Origin: Gemmatimonadota bacterium
Lineage (GTDB): Bacteria > Gemmatimonadota > Gemmatimonadetes > Gemmatimonadales > GWC2-71-9
Length of the DNA stretch: 64,000 bases
Reading direction: 5' to 3'
Assembly (NCBI GenBank): GCA_029863245.1
Contig: JAOTVV010000016.1
Span: 914 to 64,913 of the forward strand
Shown here piece by piece: positions 10,401 to 38,525 of the stretch. Numbering within the stretch: position 1 is the first letter of the stretch; each line of letters starts with the position of its first letter. Position numbers and translations under genes: made by a program. Below the pieces are notes generated by a model. That model ran no database searches, had not been told where the DNA came from, and worked only from the letters and a program-made list of their open reading frames with translations.

Positions 10401-10814
10401 GAGGTGATTTGGACACCGACACGCCGCACCGAGCTGGCGGGCCGCTATGCCATCCGCCGCACCGAGGCCGATCGGCTGCACGAGGACGGCGTCACCCAGC
10501 GGCTCGAGTCCACGGCCGACTACGTGGGCGCGCGCACCAGCGTGATCATCAACCCGTTCCTCACCTTCCGGGCGGATGGACGTCTCCTGATCGAGCGCGC
10601 GAGCGGCACCACCCGCTGGGACGCGGCACCGGCACTCGCCGTTGGGCTGCTCGATCTCCTCGAGGTGGTGGTGGGCTACCGCTTCGGTGACCTACGGGAT
10701 CCGGACTTCTCGGTTCGCGGCGGGCATGGGGCGTTCCTCACACTCGGCACCAAGGTCACGGAAGGGTCTGTCGCGACCGTGGCCGACTTCTGGCGCTCTC
10801 GGTTCGGTAGCTGA
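4473..10814 (+). CDS. Giant outer-membrane protein: subunit-like N-terminus, three DUF11 domains, SdrD-B-like domain, OmpA-like domain, Ig-like domains and a C-terminal beta-barrel
   Basis: Signal peptide, then TAAGTEISNVAQATY. Three K...G..(L/I/A).YT...D.(I/L)P modules. VIGKAWLDVNDDG...TTDGDGKFSF; GHTS...LSLERA...NRRVE; long amphipathic beta-strand C-terminus. Start set at ATG 4473 (RBS, downstream of the promoter). Confidence 0.88.
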   Translation: MPHAGRTMRTGIRPGRGLLGAVAVLLCCGLPLEAQGPTAAGTEISNVAQATYVAPNGHTFTAVSNVLVVTVAQMAGVDLAPPRTTTANPGGRVVFAHTVTNAGNGTDSVRLSATSAAGWPTLIYRDLNGDGVLDAGESQIQGPVTLSAGAAMALLVVVDVPTSATVRGTTDSVTVVAVSEFDGSRRDACVDVLQIQDVGVLVTLSKLVDRTTATAGDILTYTVSYAATGTNTALTLAMADPIPLGSSYVAGSLEWNGAPLTDGTGDDAGTFDPAGNRVLFGVGDVPGGQSGVVAFQVRIDGGLAAATPVANNASASYGTVAGTDSVASNTVVTTIVLAQLGLEKVLVGPTTARIGEQISYTLVSVNRSSTTPARDVVLSDTLPPELEYVTASPGANVLGQVVSWTLGEVAPGDSVRVSLTARVSSLVRDTLSVRNLAVLAATNAPTQTAMSDGVDLVGLLPNQLSLEKTADVLEVGLGETAPYTLVLENTGDNALSGIVIVDTLPLGGRYAEGSAIGADSVRVDGRVVTFFVTGPLAPGAKHTVRYTMAVVSAETPVLENRAVATAEGGFVVASMQLAWVRVRRSWPMETRAVIGKAWLDVNDDGRQGAGELGVAGLDVWTDDGEVATTDGDGKFSFRNVRPGGHAFRIDPTTVPAGYRIAASDRIVPVDADGWTTPNVQFRLVPTTGRVEGARIPVPWTVAVRHVRPPADSPPPTLAVTAQITDAVDSTEAASPSVPLAVLPVTFGVGSAVLTSESHTVLDDVAGLLVASPEVEVEIAGHTSSTGPRLLNLRLSLERATSVTDYLIASGIDRSRVRVEAYGPDRPAASNDTPEGRARNRRVEMNLVRGTNAAAAATFVRGLASVGLADSALVPSAPPAPRPPVTEYAVTLANPTGRPLDGLSLRFETPPDSARLVIGGAPAHVDPATMALPPIAPRANVALTVWATATGDSTWVALQAPGRAGERMAVSVADLPVPTEGVIDVAVETADLPDPALVGAGRAVTLSVAPATRGWPELTLPLPNGWEPVPGSTRLAGVPTPDPAARADSGGGTLLVWDFGKRAMGPITVEMRPAAHTMPDESVTIPALRSDTDRLEDRRTAFLFGPSVEIFGLQDGTITARDRVFIGVKGEAGQPVTLYDGDSVLARGNIRIDGIHDFIAVPLDPGPHVLRVAMRNTWSQERWDSIAVHVSDVPASLVGSTGTLTLRADGQSVETVRVRMLDRWGVPLVFPTQATVTVDGAEALGSDTDPSSVGLQHRTDSLGWLTVRIKPGHEVRRGRLALRTADVTYERPLETLPATPPLMVTGVGRVGVGASPDAFGAITARGRLDDRTSVVVSVDSRRLDANRETFGRDFDPLDEAQYPILGDASSVRTVSASQHAVAARIERGFDWLAIGDVSTGDFAEGLSLAAYRRALSGGMARIATGPVSWRGFASVTSQSLEQEQIRGAGISGPYSLGGAAIPGTEQIVVEMRDRENPQRVLTRQMLVRFIDYQIDYQVGTLLFKRPVPAADAADNPVFLMVTYEGRSGGDQRLVGGVRASLDALGWSRLQVDSLRLGVTAIHADEPGGAFDMTGVDVRLLRFAGFDLGGEISYSHAPDSSGFATSLTGSVELLGGAAKLSASWMKIGDGFGNPSNIALRAGTEEFKAGGTFQVGGTTLRAQHDFMTSTSQDVSRRRTTLGVGQPVGKTLRIEANQTLDSFENGADGDRSQALEGKLVWTPLDRLELWAEGRQQLGSSESLVRPNHVGAGAGVNVTDDLRVELRHRRVLLPADESYGVTNIGLTSDVGFGTRAWGSYQLAGGAGAQYNAAIIGLNNRITLGSAWTVNSMFERRFGLNDAELGDPVRALPFLQDEEDYWSAGLGVELLPQGAPYRVTARGEYRDGERLSTRLFTLAGDLSLNRSLAVLSRQELLSTEQTLTTGTETGRRVASLWGVAFRPIGSEAVNVLTKVSWLDETNPRNRGVLTSLGQEQRLIGAAEVIWTPTRRTELAGRYAIRRTEADRLHEDGVTQRLESTADYVGARTSVIINPFLTFRADGRLLIERASGTTRWDAAPALAVGLLDLLEVVVGYRFGDLRDPDFSVRGGHGAFLTLGTKVTEGSVATVADFWRSRFGS

Positions 10815-10885
10815 TATTAGAGATCGCCTCATTCTCGGACGGCGAGCTGGGGCCGTCGCTTGAGGGCCGAACCGCAGCCGAAGGA

Positions 10886-11335
10886 GTGACCGAGCCCATG
10901 ACGCAGATCAACATGCAGCGCGTTGCCCTGGGGGCCCTGGCGGCCGGAGCCGTGATCTTCGTGGCCGAGCGGATCCTGAGCCAGTTCTACATGGGCCCGA
11001 TGCAGGCATCGCTCGAGGCCCACAACCTGTCCATGGACGTCACGGTGAGCGGCTTCGTGCTAGCGGCACTGGTCTCGCTGCTCGTCGGCTTCGCGCTGGT
11101 CTGGTTCTATGCCGCGGTGCGGTCGCGGTTCGGTCCCGGACCCAAGGCCGCCGCACTCGTGAGCGTCGTGTTGTGGCTGGGCGGCTACGTGCCGTCGGTG
11201 CTGGGCTACAAGATGATGGGGCTATTCACCGACTGGCTGCTTGTGTTCTGGGCGCTCACGGGGCTCGCCGAAGTAATCGTGGCCACGATGGTCGGCGGTT
11301 GGCTCTACAGGGAGAGCGAGTCGGGCGCAGCGTAG
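10886..11335 (+). CDS. Hypothetical membrane protein with four hydrophobic helices
   Basis: Four hydrophobic segments. AAGGAG RBS; start may be ATG 10898. Confidence 0.75.
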   Translation: MTEPMTQINMQRVALGALAAGAVIFVAERILSQFYMGPMQASLEAHNLSMDVTVSGFVLAALVSLLVGFALVWFYAAVRSRFGPGPKAAALVSVVLWLGGYVPSVLGYKMMGLFTDWLLVFWALTGLAEVIVATMVGGWLYRESESGAA

Positions 11336-30258: not shown

Positions 30259-30436
30259 CCTCGACTAGGCATGAAGTGTTCTAACGGTATCTCGCTTCGG
30301 CACTGGAGCGTGTGGCGGTGATCACACGTTACCAGGCCGGATCGTGTCCGTCTTGAAGGACACCCTGAATGCACACCACGCCCCACGACCGCATTCACGA
30401 TCGAGGGGCGTGTCCTGCTACGAAGCAACTCTTGCC

Positions 30437-30892
30437 TTACGCGGCCTTGAGCTCGGACGTGCAGCTCGAGCAGCGGGTGGCCTTGATTGCCACCTTCGTG
30501 AGGCAATACGGACATTCCTTCTTGTCCGGTGGGGGCGGAGCGGCCTCTTCCTTCTGCTGCATGCGCATGAGGCCTCTCACCAAGAGGAAGACGGCAAACG
30601 CCACGATCAGGAAGCTCACGATGTTGTCGATGAACATTCCGTAATTGACCGTGACCGCGCCCGCCTCGGCGGCCGCGTCGGGCGTCAGGTACGGCCCGGG
30701 GACGTCACCTGCCTTGACCACGGCAAACAGGTTGGAAAAGCTCACGTTGCCGAGCAGGATGCCGATCGGCGGCATGATGATGTCGGACACGAGCGATTTC
30801 ACGATCGTGCCGAACGCACCACCGATGATGATACCAACGGCCATGTCGACGACGTTTCCGCGCATGGCGAACGCCTTGAAATCTTTCAGCAC
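30437..30892 (-). CDS. mscL: Large-conductance mechanosensitive channel with a C-terminal zinc ribbon
   Basis: [20 protein letters not shown]; C-terminal CPYC...CSSC; AGGAG RBS before the GTG. Confidence 0.96.
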
Positions 30893-30978
30893 TCTGCAAC
30901 TCCTATGCTGGGATGATGGATGAACCACGGCGGGCGCCGCGCGCATGAGGTCGCTGCGCGGCGCCCGCCGACTCGTTG

Positions 30979-32421
30979 TTACTGATCCAACCGCTGCAGC
31001 TCCACGCGGCGGTTCTGAGCGCGACCGTCACGCGTGCCGTTGTCGGCCACGGGATTGTCTGGGCCGTACCCCCTCGCCTCGAGCTGGTTGGCCGCCACGC
31101 CCTGCTGCACGAGGTAGGCGACGACCGACTCCGCACGCCGCTGAGAGAGTCCCATGTTGTACGCGCGTGACCCGGTGTTGTCGGTATGCCCCCCCACCTC
31201 GACGCGCACCTCGGGGTTACCCTGCAGGGTCTCCCCGACGCGGGTGAGGATCATCCGTGCCTGCGCCGTGAGCTGCGCGCTGTTCGTCTCGAAGTTGACC
31301 CCCTCCAGTACGATCCGCGTCTCGGCTTCCCGGAAGAGTATCGGGCATCCGGTCTGATCGACCTGGGTGTTGGCGGTGGTGTCCGGACAGCGATCGATGC
31401 CGTTCGGCACACCGTCGTTGTCGCTGTCGCTCGGGCAGCCCTGCGCATCGACCGTCGCGCCGGCCGGGGTGTTGGGGCAGCGGTCCAGGACGTCGGGCAC
31501 ACCGTCCCGATCCGCATCCAGGGCGCAGCCGTTGCCGTCGACCTGGGCGCCGCGCGGCGTGTTGGGACACCGGTCCGCCGTGTCGGGCACGCCGTCGCTG
31601 TCCGCGTCGGGGACGCAACCACTCGCATTGACCGCGGTCCCGCGCGGCGTGTTGGGACACTGGTCCGCCGAGTCACGCACACCGTCGCCGTCCGAGTCGA
31701 GTGGACAGCCTTCGGCGTCAACCCGCTCGCCGGTCGGCGTGTCGGGACACCGATCCTGGAAGTTGGGCACGCCGTCCCCGTCTGCATCGAGGGGGCAGCC
31801 CCGGTTGTCGACCGGCTCGCCGGCCGGCGTTCCCCCGCACGCGTCCCGCTTGTCGCTCACGCCGTCGCCATCGGTATCGGCGGCGCGACTGCCGAGGAGG
31901 ATGCCCACGCCTCCCTGCGCGCCAAAGTTCCAGTTCTTGTCGGCCCCGTTCTCCGGTGACAGCACATAATCAGCGAGCCCCTCGATACGGGCAAACACCA
32001 CGTCGGACAGCCAGAACCGGAAGCCGAACAAACCGTTCACGCCGAAGTCGGTCGCGTCGGTGTTGTCGTAGATGTTGTAGACTCCGCCGGCGCCGATCAG
32101 CATCGAGACGCGATCATGCAGCGGGGCGTTGTACACGAGACGGGCATGGACCGGGATGTACTTGAGGTTGCCTCCGGCGTCCAGCTCCGCCTGCGTATAG
32201 GATCCCGTTGCCTCGAGTTCCAGATTCGGCACGAAGAAGACGCCCAAGCGGCCGCCGAACCCGATGTGGTCTTTGAGCGTCAGGGTGCTGTCGAACCACG
32301 TGTACCGGGCGAACGCGCCCAGCTCCACGGCGCCCGGACGCTGGGCAAACGCGGGCGTCGCCAGTGCTGCCAGACCAACGGCAGTCACCACGGCGCTCCG
32401 TTTCAACCATTTCCTCTGCAT
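30979..32421 (-). CDS. OmpA family protein: beta-barrel, six thrombospondin type-3 repeats and an OmpA peptidoglycan-binding domain
   Basis: AAGGAGG RBS and signal peptide; DxDxDGV.D..D.CP repeats; GHTD...LSQRRA...NRRVE. Confidence 0.93.
31339..31878 (-). repeat. Six 90-nt coding repeats (TSP3 Ca-binding type)
   Basis: 6 x 30 aa: DxDxDGVx(D/N)xxDxC.xTxxxxxV(D/N)xxGC. Confidence 0.92.
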
Positions 32422-32468
32422 CAAGTTGCCTCCTTGGAAGATCGATCGCGAATTCGCCCTGGCGAAGA

Positions 32469-32483
32469 GCAAGGCGTATACCA
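32469..32483 (-). promoter_or_regulatory. sigma54 promoter of the ompA-family gene
   Basis: Minus strand TGGTATACGCCTTGC has GG-N10-GC, with an AT-rich tract directly upstream. Confidence 0.75.
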
Positions 32484-32548
32484 GAATATAAGTCTCTGCG
32501 GCAAAAAGGTTTACAAGGTTGGCACCCGAGCCGGTACCCAGCGGGCGT

Positions 32549-32585
32549 TGTTTCATTCCGGAATCGATCACGTCAGAATGGGACG
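32549..32585. promoter_or_regulatory. Tandem palindromic activator sites (GTYCCR-N3-YGGRAC-like)
   Basis: tGTTTCAttcCGGAATc and cACGTCAgaaTGGGACg, 20 bp apart. Confidence 0.5.
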
Positions 32586-32631
32586 TGAGCACGGGTGACG
32601 GAGCGAGAACGGGCGTCGAAAACACTCCGCG

Positions 32632-34092
<1,461 letters not shown>

Positions 34093-34177
34093 GTGTCGGC
34101 CCGTTCGGTTCGCACAAATGTACTCGCCGGCGCGGGATTTGACAGTCCGGCAAATCTCAGCGATCCGTCCGAAGGCC

Positions 34178-34235
34178 GGGACCGAATCGGAACGACAGCG
34201 GACGGTTTTCGGAACGACCATCCCGTTCTGATACG
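34178..34235. promoter_or_regulatory. Three tandem palindromic activator sites
   Basis: gGGACCGaatCGGAACg (34178), gGACGGTtttCGGAACg (34200), cATCCCGttcTGATACg (34219). Confidence 0.55.
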
Positions 34236-34268
34236 CTCCGGAGCAGCTCGTTCCAGCAAATCCGTCCC

Positions 34269-34284
34269 TGGCCCTGGAGTTGCA
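34269..34284 (+). promoter_or_regulatory. sigma54 promoter upstream of the Hpt-like gene
   Basis: TGGCCCTGGAGTTGCA has GG(34270)-N10-GC(34282). Confidence 0.7.
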
Positions 34285-34351
34285 CGGGGAGCACGCGGCG
34301 CACCCGGTACGACGATCGCGGCGCGCCGTGAACCGAAACGCCGTGACGGTT

Positions 34352-34672
34352 ATGCCCAACGACCCAGTGCCGGAGCACCCACCCGTTCAGATCGAGCGAC
34401 GCATGGCCGATCTGGTCGCGCGGTATCTCGAGCGGTGTCGAGCGGATGTCGCCGCCATGCGGTCGGCCCTGGACGGAGGTACCCTCGCGACCGTCCGCGG
34501 ACTGGGCGACCGGCTGGCCGGGTCGGGTGCGGCTTACGGCTTCGGCGAGATATCTGCCCGAGGCTTTGCCATCGAGCGCGCCGCCCGCGATGCGGACCTG
34601 TTCGCCATCCGAGAGGCGGTCGAGGCCGTCGACCGCTACCTGGCCAGGGTGGTCGTCACCTATCGGGACTGA
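34352..34672 (+). CDS. Stand-alone Hpt-like protein with the phospho-acceptor His replaced by Asp
   Basis: DLVARYLE...VRGLGDRLAGSGAAYGF.EIS..G.AIE.AA aligns to the Hpt motif LGH.LKGSGG.YGF. Start uncertain. Confidence 0.8.
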   Translation: MPNDPVPEHPPVQIERRMADLVARYLERCRADVAAMRSALDGGTLATVRGLGDRLAGSGAAYGFGEISARGFAIERAARDADLFAIREAVEAVDRYLARVVVTYRD

Positions 34673-34797
34673 CTCGCCGCGTCGCGGGTGCTTCATCCTA
34701 CACCGCCACAACTGACCTTCACCCCCAGCGCCCGAAGTGTATCTTCTCTGGGGTCTTCGTCTCGCTTCAGCTTTCTGAGGGAGATCGATCGAGCCGC

Positions 34798-35373
34798 ATG
34801 ACGAAGAAGTCGTCACGCCAGACCACGCGCGCACCACAGGACGGGTCGCGGGCCGGGGCCGACGCCCAGACCTCCGAGCACCTCGAGCAGGTCCGGGCCA
34901 TTCTGTTCGGCGAGCAGTTTGCGGTCTTCGAAGGTCGCCTGGAACGGCTGGAGCAGCGGCTCATCGAAGAGCAGACGGCATTCCGTGACGCGACGAATCG
35001 GCGGTTCGACGCGCTCACGGCTGAGATGGAGAAACACGTGACCGCCGTGCGGCGAACACTGGGCGATACGGAGGCGACGCACGCGGAGGCGCTGGCGCAG
35101 CTGACAGGCGAGCTCGATCGATCGGTCAACGGGATGGAGCAACAACTCGCGCAGGTTCGGGCGGATGCCGATAGGTTGGCGGTGGAGCACCGTGCACAGA
35201 CTGCCGAACGCATCGACGCGCTCGCGGCGCAGCTCGGAGATCAGTCGAACGCCCTGTCGGCACTCGTCGAGCAGAAGCTCGAGGAGCTCCGTACACTCAC
35301 GACCGATCGTGAGTCCCTCGCCGCGCTGTTCGAAGAGATGGCCTCCCGACTGAAGCGCAGCCCCTCCGGGTAG
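34798..35373 (+). CDS. Coiled-coil protein associated with the small GTPase
   Basis: LEQVRAILFGEQ...RLERLEQRL...DRESLAALFEEMASRL with heptad periodicity. Confidence 0.85.
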   Translation: MTKKSSRQTTRAPQDGSRAGADAQTSEHLEQVRAILFGEQFAVFEGRLERLEQRLIEEQTAFRDATNRRFDALTAEMEKHVTAVRRTLGDTEATHAEALAQLTGELDRSVNGMEQQLAQVRADADRLAVEHRAQTAERIDALAAQLGDQSNALSALVEQKLEELRTLTTDRESLAALFEEMASRLKRSPSG

Positions 35374-35414
35374 CACACGTTCGAGGCCTTCGGAGCGTCG
35401 CGCGCGGTCCAGCC

Positions 35415-35915
35415 ATGATCCGCAAGAAGATCTGCATGCTCGGTGCCTTCGCGGCCGGTAAGACGAGCCTCGTGCAACGATTCGTCGCGGGGCTGTTCTC
35501 TGAGAAATACCACACGACGATCGGCGTGAAGATCGATCGGAGGGAGGTCGCGGTAGACGGCGGGACGGTCACCCTCCTCCTGTGGGATCTCGCCGGCGAG
35601 GACGAGTTCCAGCGCGTTCGCATGTCCTACCTCCGTGGATCGGCTGGTTTGCTCTTCGTAGTGGACGGGACCCGCCTCGGTACGCTCGATCAGGTGAAGC
35701 TCTTGCGACGTGAAGCCTGCGACATCGTCGGCGACGTGCCGGTGGTCGTTGCCCTCAACAAATCCGACCTGGCCACCGAGTGGGAACTCGATGCGGATGT
35801 TGGTGACCATCTCCGGGCCGAGGGCTGGATGGTGTTCGTGACCAGCGCCAAAAGCGGCGTGGGGGTCGCGGAGGCGTTCCAGTGGCTGGCGCATGCGGTG
35901 AGCGGCGGGACATGA
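35415..35915 (+). CDS. Ras/Rab-like small GTPase (Rup-type)
   Basis: G1 GAFAAGKTS, G2 TTIG, G3 WDLAGE, G4 NKSD, G5 TSAK; single domain of 166 aa. Confidence 0.95.
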   Translation: MIRKKICMLGAFAAGKTSLVQRFVAGLFSEKYHTTIGVKIDRREVAVDGGTVTLLLWDLAGEDEFQRVRMSYLRGSAGLLFVVDGTRLGTLDQVKLLRREACDIVGDVPVVVALNKSDLATEWELDADVGDHLRAEGWMVFVTSAKSGVGVAEAFQWLAHAVSGGT

Positions 35916-37432
35916 GCACGTTTCCCCCAGCGGTCCTTGCGTTCTTGCAGGAGCAGCTCATCGACACGCAGGCGCCCGCCTTCCTGCTGCTCGCCGACGA
36001 TGGCACCGTGGTGGACTGGGGTGGTGCCCTCGGCGCCTACGGCATCCATGATCTCGAGCGCGGGGTCGACGTCGCGGAGCGCGTGCCGCTGCTCCAGGGC
36101 CTTCTCCCACTTGGGGTCGCACGCGAAGGGGTCCCGCTCGTGGAGACCGATGCCGGTGCGGTGGCGGACGTCGATCTGTTCCGTGGCGCCGAGGGAACGT
36201 GGGTCGTGCTGCGCAACGTGACCCCCGCGGTCGAGCGGGAGCGGGCGCTGCAGCAAAGCCGGAATGCGATGCAACTCCTGGAACGGAGCATGGCCAAGCA
36301 GGAGGCCGCGAAGGGTGCCCCTGGCGGTTTGCTCCCCAATGCGCTTGCTGCACTCGGCATCGCCATCTTCGAGCCGCTCGGCACGGACCGCTTCCGCCTG
36401 CTCGCAGCCCCGCCCCAGTGGCTCGGTGCGCTCTGGCCCGACATCACAAACGCTACCGACGAGTGCCCACTCCACGAGCACTCGCCATTTTTGCGCGACT
36501 TCCTCGAGGAAGCTGATGGGTGCTGGCAAACCGGGAGCGGGTCGTGTCGTGCCGGGCCGTGGACCGAAGTAGACGCCTTGGGCCGCGACTGGCACCTAGA
36601 AGCTGTTGCGCTCTCGGTGCAGGGTCGATCGCTGCTCGCGATCGTCGATGTTGGCCAGAGCCATCGCGAGAAGACGGCGTTGCTCCAGCGCGCACGCGAG
36701 CACGTGCTCGGCCACCAGCGGTTGCTCAAAGATCTCGAGAAGAAAGACGTGCTGCTGCACTGCATCGTGCATGACCTGCGGACGCCGATGGTGTCGGCGC
36801 ACGCGGCGCTCCAGTTGCTCGCGACCGAGACGCTCCCGTACGATGCCCGACGTGCAATCGTCGTTGGCCGCACGGAACTGGAGCGACAGGACCTCTTGAT
36901 CCGCTCGATCCTCGACGTGTTCGCGGCCGACCTCAACGAGTTGGAGAGCCGCGCCGATGCTGCGCCGGTTGATGTTGCCGACTGCGCGGCGGAGGTAGTC
37001 GACGCCTTCCGGCCCGCCTTTCAGCTGCGTGGCATCAACTTGGCTCTGGAGCGGACCGATGCCGAGCCACCAGGGGGGTGGGGCGTTGTCGCCGAACGCA
37101 CACGGCTGGTGCGCGTACTGGCGAATCTGGTGGACAATGCGCTGCGCCACTCGCGCCGAGACACGACGGTAGCCGTCGGGCTCGCAGTGGACGGCGAGGG
37201 AGTCTTCGTCACGGTCGACGACGAGGGCCCCGGCGTACCGGCCGACCTCCAACCACGGCTGTTCGACCGCTTCTCGCACGGTGGGCCGGCCGGAAACATC
37301 GGACTCGGCTTGCACTTCTGCCGGGTCACGATCGAAGGGTGGGGTGGCCGCATCGGTCAGGAGAACCGCGCCGGGGGTGGGTCCCGTTTCTGGTTCCGAC
37401 TCCCGCAGTCCTCCGGGCGCGCCGACGAATAG
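35912..37432 (+). CDS. Cytoplasmic sensor histidine kinase with PAS-like N-terminal region
   Basis: H-box CIVHDLRTP, N-box NLVDNALRH, DDEGPG, GLGL; no TM helix; ATGA overlap with the GTPase gene. Confidence 0.93.
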   Translation: MSTFPPAVLAFLQEQLIDTQAPAFLLLADDGTVVDWGGALGAYGIHDLERGVDVAERVPLLQGLLPLGVAREGVPLVETDAGAVADVDLFRGAEGTWVVLRNVTPAVERERALQQSRNAMQLLERSMAKQEAAKGAPGGLLPNALAALGIAIFEPLGTDRFRLLAAPPQWLGALWPDITNATDECPLHEHSPFLRDFLEEADGCWQTGSGSCRAGPWTEVDALGRDWHLEAVALSVQGRSLLAIVDVGQSHREKTALLQRAREHVLGHQRLLKDLEKKDVLLHCIVHDLRTPMVSAHAALQLLATETLPYDARRAIVVGRTELERQDLLIRSILDVFAADLNELESRADAAPVDVADCAAEVVDAFRPAFQLRGINLALERTDAEPPGGWGVVAERTRLVRVLANLVDNALRHSRRDTTVAVGLAVDGEGVFVTVDDEGPGVPADLQPRLFDRFSHGGPAGNIGLGLHFCRVTIEGWGGRIGQENRAGGGSRFWFRLPQSSGRADE

Positions 37433-37465
37433 TCGGTGCGCCGCTCGCTCCCGAGCTGGAACGGC

Positions 37466-37503
37466 CGTCCACGATCGGGACGGCTCCGTTCCAAATCGGG
37501 CCT
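37466..37503. promoter_or_regulatory. Tandem palindromic activator sites (the region could also fold as a hairpin, 37457-37493)
   Basis: cGTCCACgatCGGGACg and cGTTCCAaatCGGGCCt, 21 bp apart. Confidence 0.5.
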
Positions 37504-37579
37504 TCGCAACGCGGGGGCTTGGTGTTGGTCGAGTGAGGGAAATCGTTGGCGTCCTGCAACTTGGACAGATTCCTCGCGC

Positions 37580-37594
37580 TGGCATGAACCTTCC
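37580..37594 (+). promoter_or_regulatory. sigma54-like promoter with a variant -12 element
   Basis: TGGCATGAACCTTCC has a good -24 but TTCC instead of TTGC. Confidence 0.4.
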
Positions 37595-37643
37595 GTTGGG
37601 GCGTAGCGGTATCGACGGACCGAACTTGCGAAAGGATAGACCG

Positions 37644-38051
37644 ATGAGTTACAAGATTCAGGACATTGAGGGCATCGGACCCTCGTACGCCCAAAAGCTG
37701 GCGGTGGCCAAGGTCAGGACGACCAACGACTTGCTCAAGTACTGCTGTGACGCCAAAGGTCGCATGAGCGTGGGTGCCAAGACCGGCGTCGGTGAGGCGC
37801 AGCTGCTCAAGTGGGCGAACATGGCCGATCTGATGCGCATCTCGGGCGTCGGCTCGGAGTTCTCCGAGCTGCTGGAGGCCGCCGGGGTCGACACGGTCAA
37901 GGAACTGCGGAATCGCAACGCCGAGAACCTCGCGATCAAGATGAAAGAGGTCAATCGCGCTCGGCGGCTCACGCGTACCACTCCGAGTGCGAAGAGCGTG
38001 CAGAAGTGGATCACGCAGGCGGGGAAGCTCGCTCCCGTCATCACTCACTAA
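37644..38051 (+). CDS. DUF4332 family protein
   Basis: IQDIEGIGP, LKWANMADLMRISGVG.EFSELLEAAGVDTVKELRNRN. Confidence 0.92.
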   Translation: MSYKIQDIEGIGPSYAQKLAVAKVRTTNDLLKYCCDAKGRMSVGAKTGVGEAQLLKWANMADLMRISGVGSEFSELLEAAGVDTVKELRNRNAENLAIKMKEVNRARRLTRTTPSAKSVQKWITQAGKLAPVITH

Positions 38052-38071
38052 TTACTGGGGAGTAGACGACT

Positions 38072-38275
38072 ATGAGCATCGCCAAAGTAACCGAGATCAG
38101 CGCCACATCGTCCAAGAGCTTCGATGACGCCGTCGCCGAGGGGATCAAGCGCGCGGCGAAGACCCTGAAGAACATCGAGGGTGCGTGGGTCCAGACCATG
38201 AAAGTGGATGTCGCAAACAACAAGGTGACCCAATATCGCGTCAACATGAAGGTCACGTTCGTGCTCGACGCCTGA
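38072..38275 (+). CDS. Dodecin family protein
   Basis: AKVTEISATS.KSFDDAV..GI.RA.KTLKNI.GAWV...YRVNMKVTFVL. Confidence 0.95.
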   Translation: MSIAKVTEISATSSKSFDDAVAEGIKRAAKTLKNIEGAWVQTMKVDVANNKVTQYRVNMKVTFVLDA

Positions 38276-38303
38276 TCGCGGGTGACTCAGCGAGTGAAAC
38301 GCA

Positions 38304-38331
38304 AAACGGCCGGCGGATCCGCCGGCCGTTT
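38304..38331. terminator. Perfect 28-bp palindrome, likely intrinsic terminator
   Basis: AAACGGCCGGCGGATCCGCCGGCCGTTT, just after the dodecin gene. Confidence 0.75.
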
Positions 38332-38525
38332 GTCGTTGGCCCGCGCGACGGTGTGCTTCGGATCATGTTACCCGGGCCACTGCCGATGTAGGATTTCGCT
38401 TGGCGCTGAGCTGACCACGGTGGCGGACTGGCCGTCCCAAGCAGAGGACATGGCCGTGCTGAGCGATGTTGCCCCGGGAGCGGCAACTGCGCAGTTTGAC
38501 AGGGGTTGGCGCGCCAGGGGCTTGT

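Follow-up and report, generated by a model that had tools for sequence, protein, structure and literature searches.

How might a Rab-like GTPase be wired into a sigma-54 two-component circuit, and how might it work at a locus without the membrane protein that usually accompanies its family? We consider this question for a six-gene island at positions 30979–37432 of a 64,000-nucleotide stretch of DNA (the window) from a Gemmatimonadota bacterium (assembly GCA_029863245.1, contig JAOTVV010000016.1, positions 914 to 64,913), whose genes were defined by open reading frames (ORFs) and Pfam searches of their translations. On balance we favor reading the island as a reduced signalling module of the Group 1 Rup kind, in which the Rup GTPase would act through a histidine kinase and an NtrC-type regulator on sigma-54 promoters. 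The six genes, whose strands and positions agree with those of a first-pass annotation made from the letters alone, and the modules of the kinase are as follows:

35415–35915, plus strand: Rup GTPase gene, 166 amino acids (Pfam Ras, E 2e-30, residues 5–162)
35912–37432, plus strand: histidine kinase gene (HATPase_c, E 2e-22; HisKA 26.6 bits, just below the 26.9 cut-off)
35912–36310, plus strand: kinase module N1, amino acids 1–133, a predicted PAS-like domain and a helix with QQxxN (alignment, AlphaFold2 (AF2), Foldseek)
36323–36760, plus strand: kinase module N2, amino acids 138–283, a second predicted PAS-like domain and a QxARE helix leading into DHp (alignment, AF2, Foldseek)
36761–37432, plus strand: kinase core, DHp with H-box HDLRTP, and HATPase_c (Pfam, motif in the translation)
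34798–35373, plus strand: coiled-coil protein gene, 191 amino acids (in Pfam, coiled-coil-type matches below threshold only)
34352–34672, plus strand: Hpt-like protein gene, 106 amino acids (Pfam Hpt, PF01627, E 1.7e-6, 28.6 bits, cut-off 24.6)
32632–34092, minus strand: NtrC-type regulator gene (Response_reg, E 5e-28; Sigma54_activat, E 3e-68; HTH_8, E 6e-17)
30979–32421, minus strand: OmpA-TSP3 outer-membrane protein gene (Pfam OmpA, E 7e-25; TSP_3, E 3.6e-24)

Below, G000 is the window's own genome, L numbers denote related loci, and G301 and G302 are the genomes of L007 and L027, respectively.

The Rup GTPase and its gene neighbourhood

The GTPase has the motifs G1 (GAFAAGKT), G3 (DLAGE, in the context WDLAGEDEF), G4 (NKSD) and G5 (SAK), and GxxxxGKT, DxxG, NKxD and SAK are invariant across a 20-member GTPase alignment. 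The first-pass annotation had pointed to Glu in place of the catalytic Gln in G3; it is read in the translation and is nearly invariant in the family, the residue after the G3 Gly being Glu in 19 of 20 alignment rows and Arg in the same-genome paralogue. The G3 Asp (D58) is present, unlike in MglA-type G3 motifs. In the sections of Wuichet and Søgaard-Andersen (Genome Biol Evol 2014/2015, PMC4316618) that define them, Group 1 Rup proteins have no G3 Gln and no MglB, and are encoded in a four-gene neighbourhood of rup, a coiled-coil protein, an unknown-domain protein often with a transmembrane (TM) segment and OmpA, and an output protein that has an invariant Gln in its N-terminal part. Those sections place them as the prokaryotic GTPases nearest to eukaryotic Rab, Ras and Rho, propose that the missing Gln is supplied in trans by the N-terminus of the output protein, and name GGDEF/EAL and kinase outputs but not PP2C, cyclase, HD-GYP or sigma-54 AAA+ outputs.

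The window GTPase is a typical Group 1 Rup protein, with 54–64% identity to homologues in other phyla. The annotation's description of a Rup family found with coiled-coil, OmpA and signalling genes was accurate, because the same sections of PMC4316618 define the same group and neighbourhood. Group 1 Rup is very widespread: in a protein search with the GTPase, 7863 of 8000 scored candidates match at E≤0.001, and the best 120 of these 7863 matches are 56–95% identical to it and span Cyanobacteria, Nitrospirales, Thermodesulfobacteriota, Blastocatellia and Phycisphaerae. In the literature searched we found no bench study of any Rup protein. Within the phylum, Rup is present in 22 of 301 sampled Gemmatimonadota genomes (E≤1e-25). 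Another Gemmatimonadota genus has tandem Rup gene pairs about 50 nt apart (G122:C3:1327645-1328649, also G185, G242, G297 and G096).

We compared the island with the best 80 of 589 relatives, placing homologues of each component by tblastn and counting the locus tallies by hand. The family's unknown-domain/TM/OmpA membrane protein is here called DUFX. The usual gene order is coiled-coil, DUFX, Rup, output, with DUFX directly upstream of rup in 71 of the 80 loci and downstream of it, after PP2C and a coiled-coil gene, in two; in three more the upstream DNA is too short to judge. DUFX is absent from the remaining four, namely L004 and L005 (both in the window's clade), L070 and L019. In the window, just 41 nt lie between the stop of the coiled-coil gene (35373) and the start of the GTPase gene (35415), which excludes an OmpA-domain gene between them, as the first-pass annotation had it. 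The survey of gene order that it proposed thus shows the island to be a reduced form of the family's arrangement. Homologues of the coiled-coil protein lie upstream of rup throughout the related loci, and the protein is 33% identical (E 2e-20) to the coiled-coil protein of a second Rup module in the same genome, so that by sequence comparison its gene is the Rup module's conserved coiled-coil partner.

The lack of DUFX at the island is, judging from these comparisons, a derived loss confined to this locus, because L007 (Gemmatimonadales) shares the neighbourhood and still has DUFX: MscL, OmpA-TSP3 and NtrC lie on one strand there, and Hpt, coiled-coil, DUFX, Rup, histidine kinase and later DUF4332 on the other. 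In a FastTree phylogeny of 83 Rup sequences the window's clade (support 0.965) is nested in a DUFX-bearing clade with support 0.97, and the window Rup groups with loci of canonical neighbourhood in a tree that contains no Group 2 Rup or MglA outgroup. Just past MscL, and adjoining the island, L007 also carries a second Rup and a PP2C (L007:2087-3392, minus strand), and thus pairs two Rups and two outputs with one coiled-coil and one DUFX gene.

The second, complete Rup module of the window's genome (C42:104000-120000, L003) reads Ser/Thr kinase with Big_2 repeats, 444-amino-acid protein without a Pfam match, coiled-coil, DUFX-TM-OmpA, Rup, PP2C. Its Rup is 54% identical to that of the window, and its DUFX (C42:112900-114753, 618 amino acids) is the sole DUFX homologue of the genome. 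Exactly one such homologue (E≤1e-10) is found in each of G000, G109, G149, G301 and G302, four of which carry two Rups, and a near-full-length DUFX is encoded outside the DUFX-less locus in the genome of L070 and likewise in that of L019. All five genomes checked that have a DUFX-less Rup locus therefore keep DUFX elsewhere, which suggests a partner shared between Rup loci. The single homologue of the same-genus genome G109 (G109:C26:22250-24016) has one in-frame TAG within the match.

An AF2 model of the genome's DUFX (38-row alignment, mean pLDDT 78.9) has an alpha-beta-beta-alpha-beta-beta-beta-alpha domain at about residues 176–294, a long helix at 329–364, periplasmic alpha/beta domains and OmpA. 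With an exhaustive structure aligner, residues 184–317 match the longin domain of VAMP7 (Z 13.0, rmsd 2.6, 119 aligned), Sec22 (Z 11.9), a Lokiarchaeota Roadblock-Longin protein (Z 11.4), the Rab guanine nucleotide exchange factor (GEF) Mon1-Ccz1 (Z 10.2–10.5), TRAPP (Z 10.2) and MglB 3t1r (Z 10.1, rmsd 2.7, 107 aligned); Foldseek on the whole model returned OmpA/Pal matches only, and the longin/Roadblock matches came with the exhaustive aligner alone. As modelled, the cytoplasmic domain of DUFX has a longin/Roadblock fold, and DUFX is likely to be a GEF or GTPase-activating protein (GAP) and the envelope sensor of Rup. Because of this fold, the annotation's statement that no roadblock/MglB gene is present holds for the island and not for the system. 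The five Roadblock/LC7 (PF03259) matches in the genome lie on contigs C57, C25 and C18, with none on the island's contig C23. Three of the matches are in tandem at C25:34469-35402, which may be an MglB-type cluster without relation to the island.

The kinase N-terminus and its possible contact with Rup

The GTPase stop and the kinase start overlap in ATGA (35912–35915), so the coupling of the two genes described in the first pass is seen directly. The kinase was also rightly taken as cytoplasmic: its highest 19-residue Kyte-Doolittle mean is 1.46, below TM strength. Residues 1–283 have no Pfam match, though they are conserved beside rup genes. In an AF2 model (54-row alignment, pLDDT 91.7) they fold into two alpha/beta domains that resemble PAS, with a long helix after each one, and the top Foldseek matches are tandem-PAS proteins (PpsR, E 3e-7; LOV-PAS-HK, E 6e-7). 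The model thus shows the kinase N-terminus as two PAS-like modules, N1 and N2. A Roadblock fold was considered for them and rejected, the structural matches being PAS proteins. A profile comparison of N1 with N2 (probability 21%, E 0.0011) makes a common origin possible, and in BLASTP the kinase N-terminus had no match in the PP2C protein of the second Rup module (best E 0.47). N1 has the motif QQxxN, whose second Gln, Q114 in the window, is kept in every N1 row displayed (half of the rows) and is the "invariant glutamine" of the output proteins as that residue is presented in PMC4316618. The motif of N2 is QxARE.

Both modules recur in other Rup loci. In 60 of the 80 loci what comes after N1 and/or N2 is a kinase core; it is Guanylate_cyc in seven, HD_5 in three and sigma-54 AAA+ in four (L010, L040, L070 and L072), and PP2C follows rup in two. 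N2 is fused to sigma-54 AAA+/HTH_8, with no receiver in the ORF, in L010:10390-12174, L040:9582-11369 and L072:4951-6747 (Nitrospirales/Nitrospira), and in L070:10543-12271 (Entotheonella) an N2-PAS ORF abuts a separate AAA+ ORF. N1 stands alone in 27 of the 80 loci, as an ORF of about 130 amino acids that begins immediately after rup. Cyanobacterial loci (L006, L008, L009 and others, at about 10499–10900) have a separate N1 ORF and then an N2-kinase gene, and Pfam names neither module. It is this recurrence before varied outputs that chiefly argues that N1/N2 couple Rup to whatever output follows it. The combined N1N2 kinase itself is narrowly distributed, being found (E≤1e-8) in three of the 301 Gemmatimonadota genomes, all of the window's genus and with the window genome counted.

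The complex modelling of the GTPase with the kinase N-terminus that had been proposed with the first-pass annotation was carried out with GTP and Mg. It gave a score of 0.40 (runs 0.30, 0.40 and 0.42) against 0.00 for the best control, with at least 77% of contacts agreeing between runs and a partner pLDDT of at least 86. Of 157 solved complexes 116 reached the mark used, as did two of 215 mismatched pairs; at scores of 0.60 or less it was reached by just 18 of the 157 solved complexes and by both of the mismatches that passed; the expected contact is thus predicted, in a score range where such support is weak. Synteny, the reuse of the N-terminal modules in other Rup outputs and this prediction are the grounds for supposing that the GTPase may control the kinase.

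The NtrC-type regulator and its candidate promoters

The DD/D/T/K receiver residues, CLDLVMPG, Walker A, GAFTGA and the Fis-type helix-turn-helix (HTH) of the NtrC-type regulator are all readable in its translation, and the genome has rpoN on contig C18 (Sigma54_DBD, E 1.4e-63). The OmpA-TSP3 protein consists of an N-terminal beta-barrel (OprF/OMP_b-brl), thrombospondin type 3 repeats and a C-terminal OmpA peptidoglycan-binding domain. The regions upstream of its gene and of the hpt-like gene contain the following elements:

32468–32483, minus strand: predicted −24/−12 promoter TGGTATACGCCTTGCT, its GC 47 nt upstream of the OmpA-TSP3 start
32429–32435: Shine-Dalgarno sequence AAGGAGG of the OmpA-TSP3 gene
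32550–32561, minus strand: 12-mer CCGGAATGAAAC, candidate activator-binding site some 70 nt farther upstream than the −24 element, with similar 12-mers in L005 and L007
34269–34284, plus strand: predicted −24/−12 promoter TGGCCCTGGAGTTGCA, upstream of the hpt-like gene
34182–34235, plus strand: conserved upstream block, candidate NtrC sites, from a four-locus alignment of the divergent intergenic region
34182–34193, plus strand: 12-mer CCGAATCGGAAC, part of the conserved intergenic block
34210–34230, plus strand: inverted repeat CGGAACG-N7-CGTTCTG, some 40 nt before the −24 element of the hpt-like gene

The GG-N10-GC of the OmpA-TSP3 promoter stands at the equivalent place in all four orthologous loci, including L004, L005 (TGGTATATGGCTTGCT) and L007 (TGGCATGTGCGTTGCC), and the promoter of the hpt operon is kept in L004, G109 (TGGCCTCGGAGTTGCA), L005 (TGGCCTTGGAGTTGCA) and L007 (TGGCCCTGGAATTGCG) while the DNA around it has diverged. 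Because these −24/−12 sites are conserved amid diverged DNA, the OmpA-TSP3 gene and the sensor operon are both probably sigma-54 dependent. The neighbouring NtrC-type protein is the obvious candidate activator of both promoters, and OmpA-TSP3 orthologues adjoin NtrC in L004, L005, L007 and G109. The first-pass annotation's suggestion that the OmpA gene is a transcriptional target is thereby plausible, given a promoter conserved in four of four orthologous loci beside NtrC; the conserved sigma-54 promoter of the sensor operon goes beyond what it had claimed. A sigma-70/terminator consensus scan of 30300–38400 was uninformative, with no promoters and three terminator-like sites against 3.8 expected.

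The 12-mer motif was built from these same sites, so that its counts are circular. The form CCGRWWYGRRAC has three copies in the window where 1.03 would be expected, a number that 11 of 100 shuffles attain, and its 46 occurrences in the genome mean that it is not specific on its own. The third copy in the window (CCGATTTGGAAC, 37488–37499, minus strand) lies between the kinase and a DUF4332 gene, with no −24/−12 match beside it.

That the kinase feeds this NtrC-type regulator is suggested by three things. No kinase gene other than the Rup kinase lies beside NtrC; the gene block is conserved in G109, G149 and G301; and the parts are missing together at orthologue level in G112, of the same genus and 95% complete, where the Hpt-like protein, N1N2 and the kinase-type Rup were unmatched at the thresholds used and the best NtrC (46%) and the best OmpA-TSP3 (50%) are at paralogue level.

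The Hpt-like protein cannot serve as a relay step, because its phospho-accepting His is missing. At this position, aligned with YPD1 (GLGDRLAGSG vs NLGHFLKGSS), the window protein has Asp, as do its counterparts in L004 and G109, while that of L007 has Leu, and the single His of the protein (H9) is not conserved in L007. By sequence it is a His-less Hpt-fold protein (a pseudo-Hpt), and our guess is a regulatory, docking role. As a query over the 301 Gemmatimonadota genomes it found mostly Hpt domains of large hybrid kinases, and it is therefore unusable as a marker beyond the genus.

The proposed circuit, its alternatives and known systems

In the scheme that we infer, for its protein-protein contacts and its phosphotransfer step alike, one sigma-54-dependent operon would encode the His-less Hpt-fold protein, the coiled-coil partner, Rup and the soluble kinase. 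N1 and N2 would read the nucleotide state of Rup and so set kinase activity, and the kinase would phosphorylate the divergently encoded NtrC-type regulator. The phosphorylated regulator would then bind the conserved sites in both intergenic regions and open the sigma-54 promoters, with the OmpA-TSP3 gene as envelope output and the sensor operon itself as feedback. DUFX would probably be supplied in trans by the single gene of the second Rup module, whose own output is PP2C. A wider picture is possible, though we hold it tentatively and think it doubtful as a whole. One envelope-anchored longin/Roadblock-OmpA protein at the other locus would serve two Rups, so that one envelope or cell-wall signal reaches a PP2C arm and a kinase-NtrC-sigma-54 arm; the latter would remodel the outer membrane through OmpA-TSP3 and amplify itself, and the His-less Hpt protein would brake the receiver. 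If true, this would be a bacterial GTPase network with a shared regulator, much as a single GEF or GAP may serve several Rabs.

Several observations weigh against the Rup-kinase-NtrC scheme. The support that the complex model lends to a GTPase–kinase contact is weak, and the pairing of the window's clade with L007 as sister has a support of just 0.59 on the Rup tree. Over the window there are 25 −24/−12 consensus matches with up to two mismatches where chance predicts 21.2, and as many are found in 24 of 100 shuffles, so that the number is not above chance; strict sites number nine genome-wide, two of them in the island, by patterns that were shaped on those two. The genome has 16 sigma-54 activators, one of which would fall within 20 kb by chance about 9% of the time; a full-length NtrC gene stands near rup in just seven of the 80 loci, about the chance rate and thus no family-wide enrichment; and in G302 the Rup kinase occurs with no orthologue of this NtrC. 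These last three points would also fit a non-cognate pair, in which another kinase feeds the NtrC-type regulator and the receiver served by the Rup kinase is encoded at some other locus. We regard such a pair as improbable, as no other kinase gene adjoins NtrC, the block is kept in G109, G149 and G301 and has no orthologue-level gene found in G112, and the sensor operon has a promoter of the sigma-54 type, with conserved sites in an intergenic region that it has in common with ntrC. N2 itself precedes sigma-54 AAA+ in four of the 80 loci, fused in L010, L040 and L072 and as an adjoining ORF in L070.

The flow of information could also be reversed, with N1 and its invariant Gln acting as a GAP (or GEF) for Rup, the effector of Rup lying elsewhere (the coiled-coil protein, for example), and the kinase sensing through N2 independently of Rup. 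The lack of a G3 Gln and the proposal of a Gln in trans from the output N-terminus, as set out in the relevant sections of PMC4316618, favor this, as do the retention of Q114 in all rows displayed and the 27 of 80 loci with N1 as a separate protein, as a dedicated regulator might be. Yet the model places Q114 in the long helix that follows the PAS core and not on an obvious finger loop, and the occurrence of N1-only and N2-only outputs on many enzyme types is more easily explained by sensor modules than by a GAP; the same module could moreover be both GAP and effector. We therefore think reversed flow unlikely. Least credible is a decaying remnant, non-functional since the loss of DUFX, for which the absence of the canonical membrane partner speaks, as do the missing His of the Hpt-like protein and the two frames of its gene in L005 (3368-3684), a Gemmatimonadaceae metagenome-assembled genome (MAG), by frameshift or assembly error, which also counts against a functional circuit. 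The ratio of nonsynonymous to synonymous substitution (dN/dS) against G109 is 0.12–0.28 over all six genes (OmpA-TSP3 0.14, NtrC 0.13, Hpt-like 0.12), which indicates purifying selection and not a decaying remnant. The GTPase and kinase motifs are all intact, as is the hpt-like gene outside L005; the arrangement is kept in three more genomes or MAGs, and in L007, which retains DUFX, the Hpt-like protein already lacks the His. We consider decay very improbable.

On the Rup-kinase-NtrC reading, the trimmed island has soluble components only, a clear transcriptional read-out in its two predicted sigma-54 promoters, and a missing part that is defined and has its gene at another locus. These traits would make it a practical system for asking what Rup senses, whether the PAS-like modules are effectors or a GAP, and whether the longin/Roadblock partner is an exchange factor.

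The island resembles the Group 1 Rup system, as far as the defining sections of PMC4316618 describe it, in having no G3 Gln, no MglB pairing, a coiled-coil partner and a kinase output with an N-terminal invariant Gln. Its operon differs in being without the unknown-domain/TM/OmpA gene, and it adds a His-less Hpt-fold protein, an NtrC-type activator, an OmpA-TSP3 gene and two predicted sigma-54 promoters. MglA/MglB and the actinobacterial conservons (CvnA-D, Mfp) likewise combine a Ras-like GTPase with a Roadblock-fold partner, DUFX being modelled as longin/Roadblock. Unlike in MglA/MglB, Rup retains the G3 Asp, the island is without a Roadblock gene, and the family's predicted Roadblock-like domain sits in a TM/OmpA protein. 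In the accounts of conservons that we drew on, the GTPase also works with a histidine-kinase-like protein and no response regulator is described, whereas the island has a conventional one as its presumed output.

With NtrB/NtrC systems the island shares a soluble kinase of the PAS type, an activator built of REC, AAA+ with GAFTGA and HTH, predicted −24/−12 promoters and candidate upstream sites. Its kinase differs in that the sensor modules are specific to Rup GTPase loci, and the likely input is therefore the GTPase, not a small molecule or PII. Arabidopsis AHP6 is a pseudo-phosphotransfer protein, an Hpt fold without the phospho-accepting His, and the Hpt-like protein of the island is of the same kind, in a proposed circuit that needs no Hpt step. 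What was known is thus the Group 1 Rup system, described computationally; what is new here is a DUFX-less operon combined with a His-less Hpt protein and an NtrC/sigma-54 circuit.

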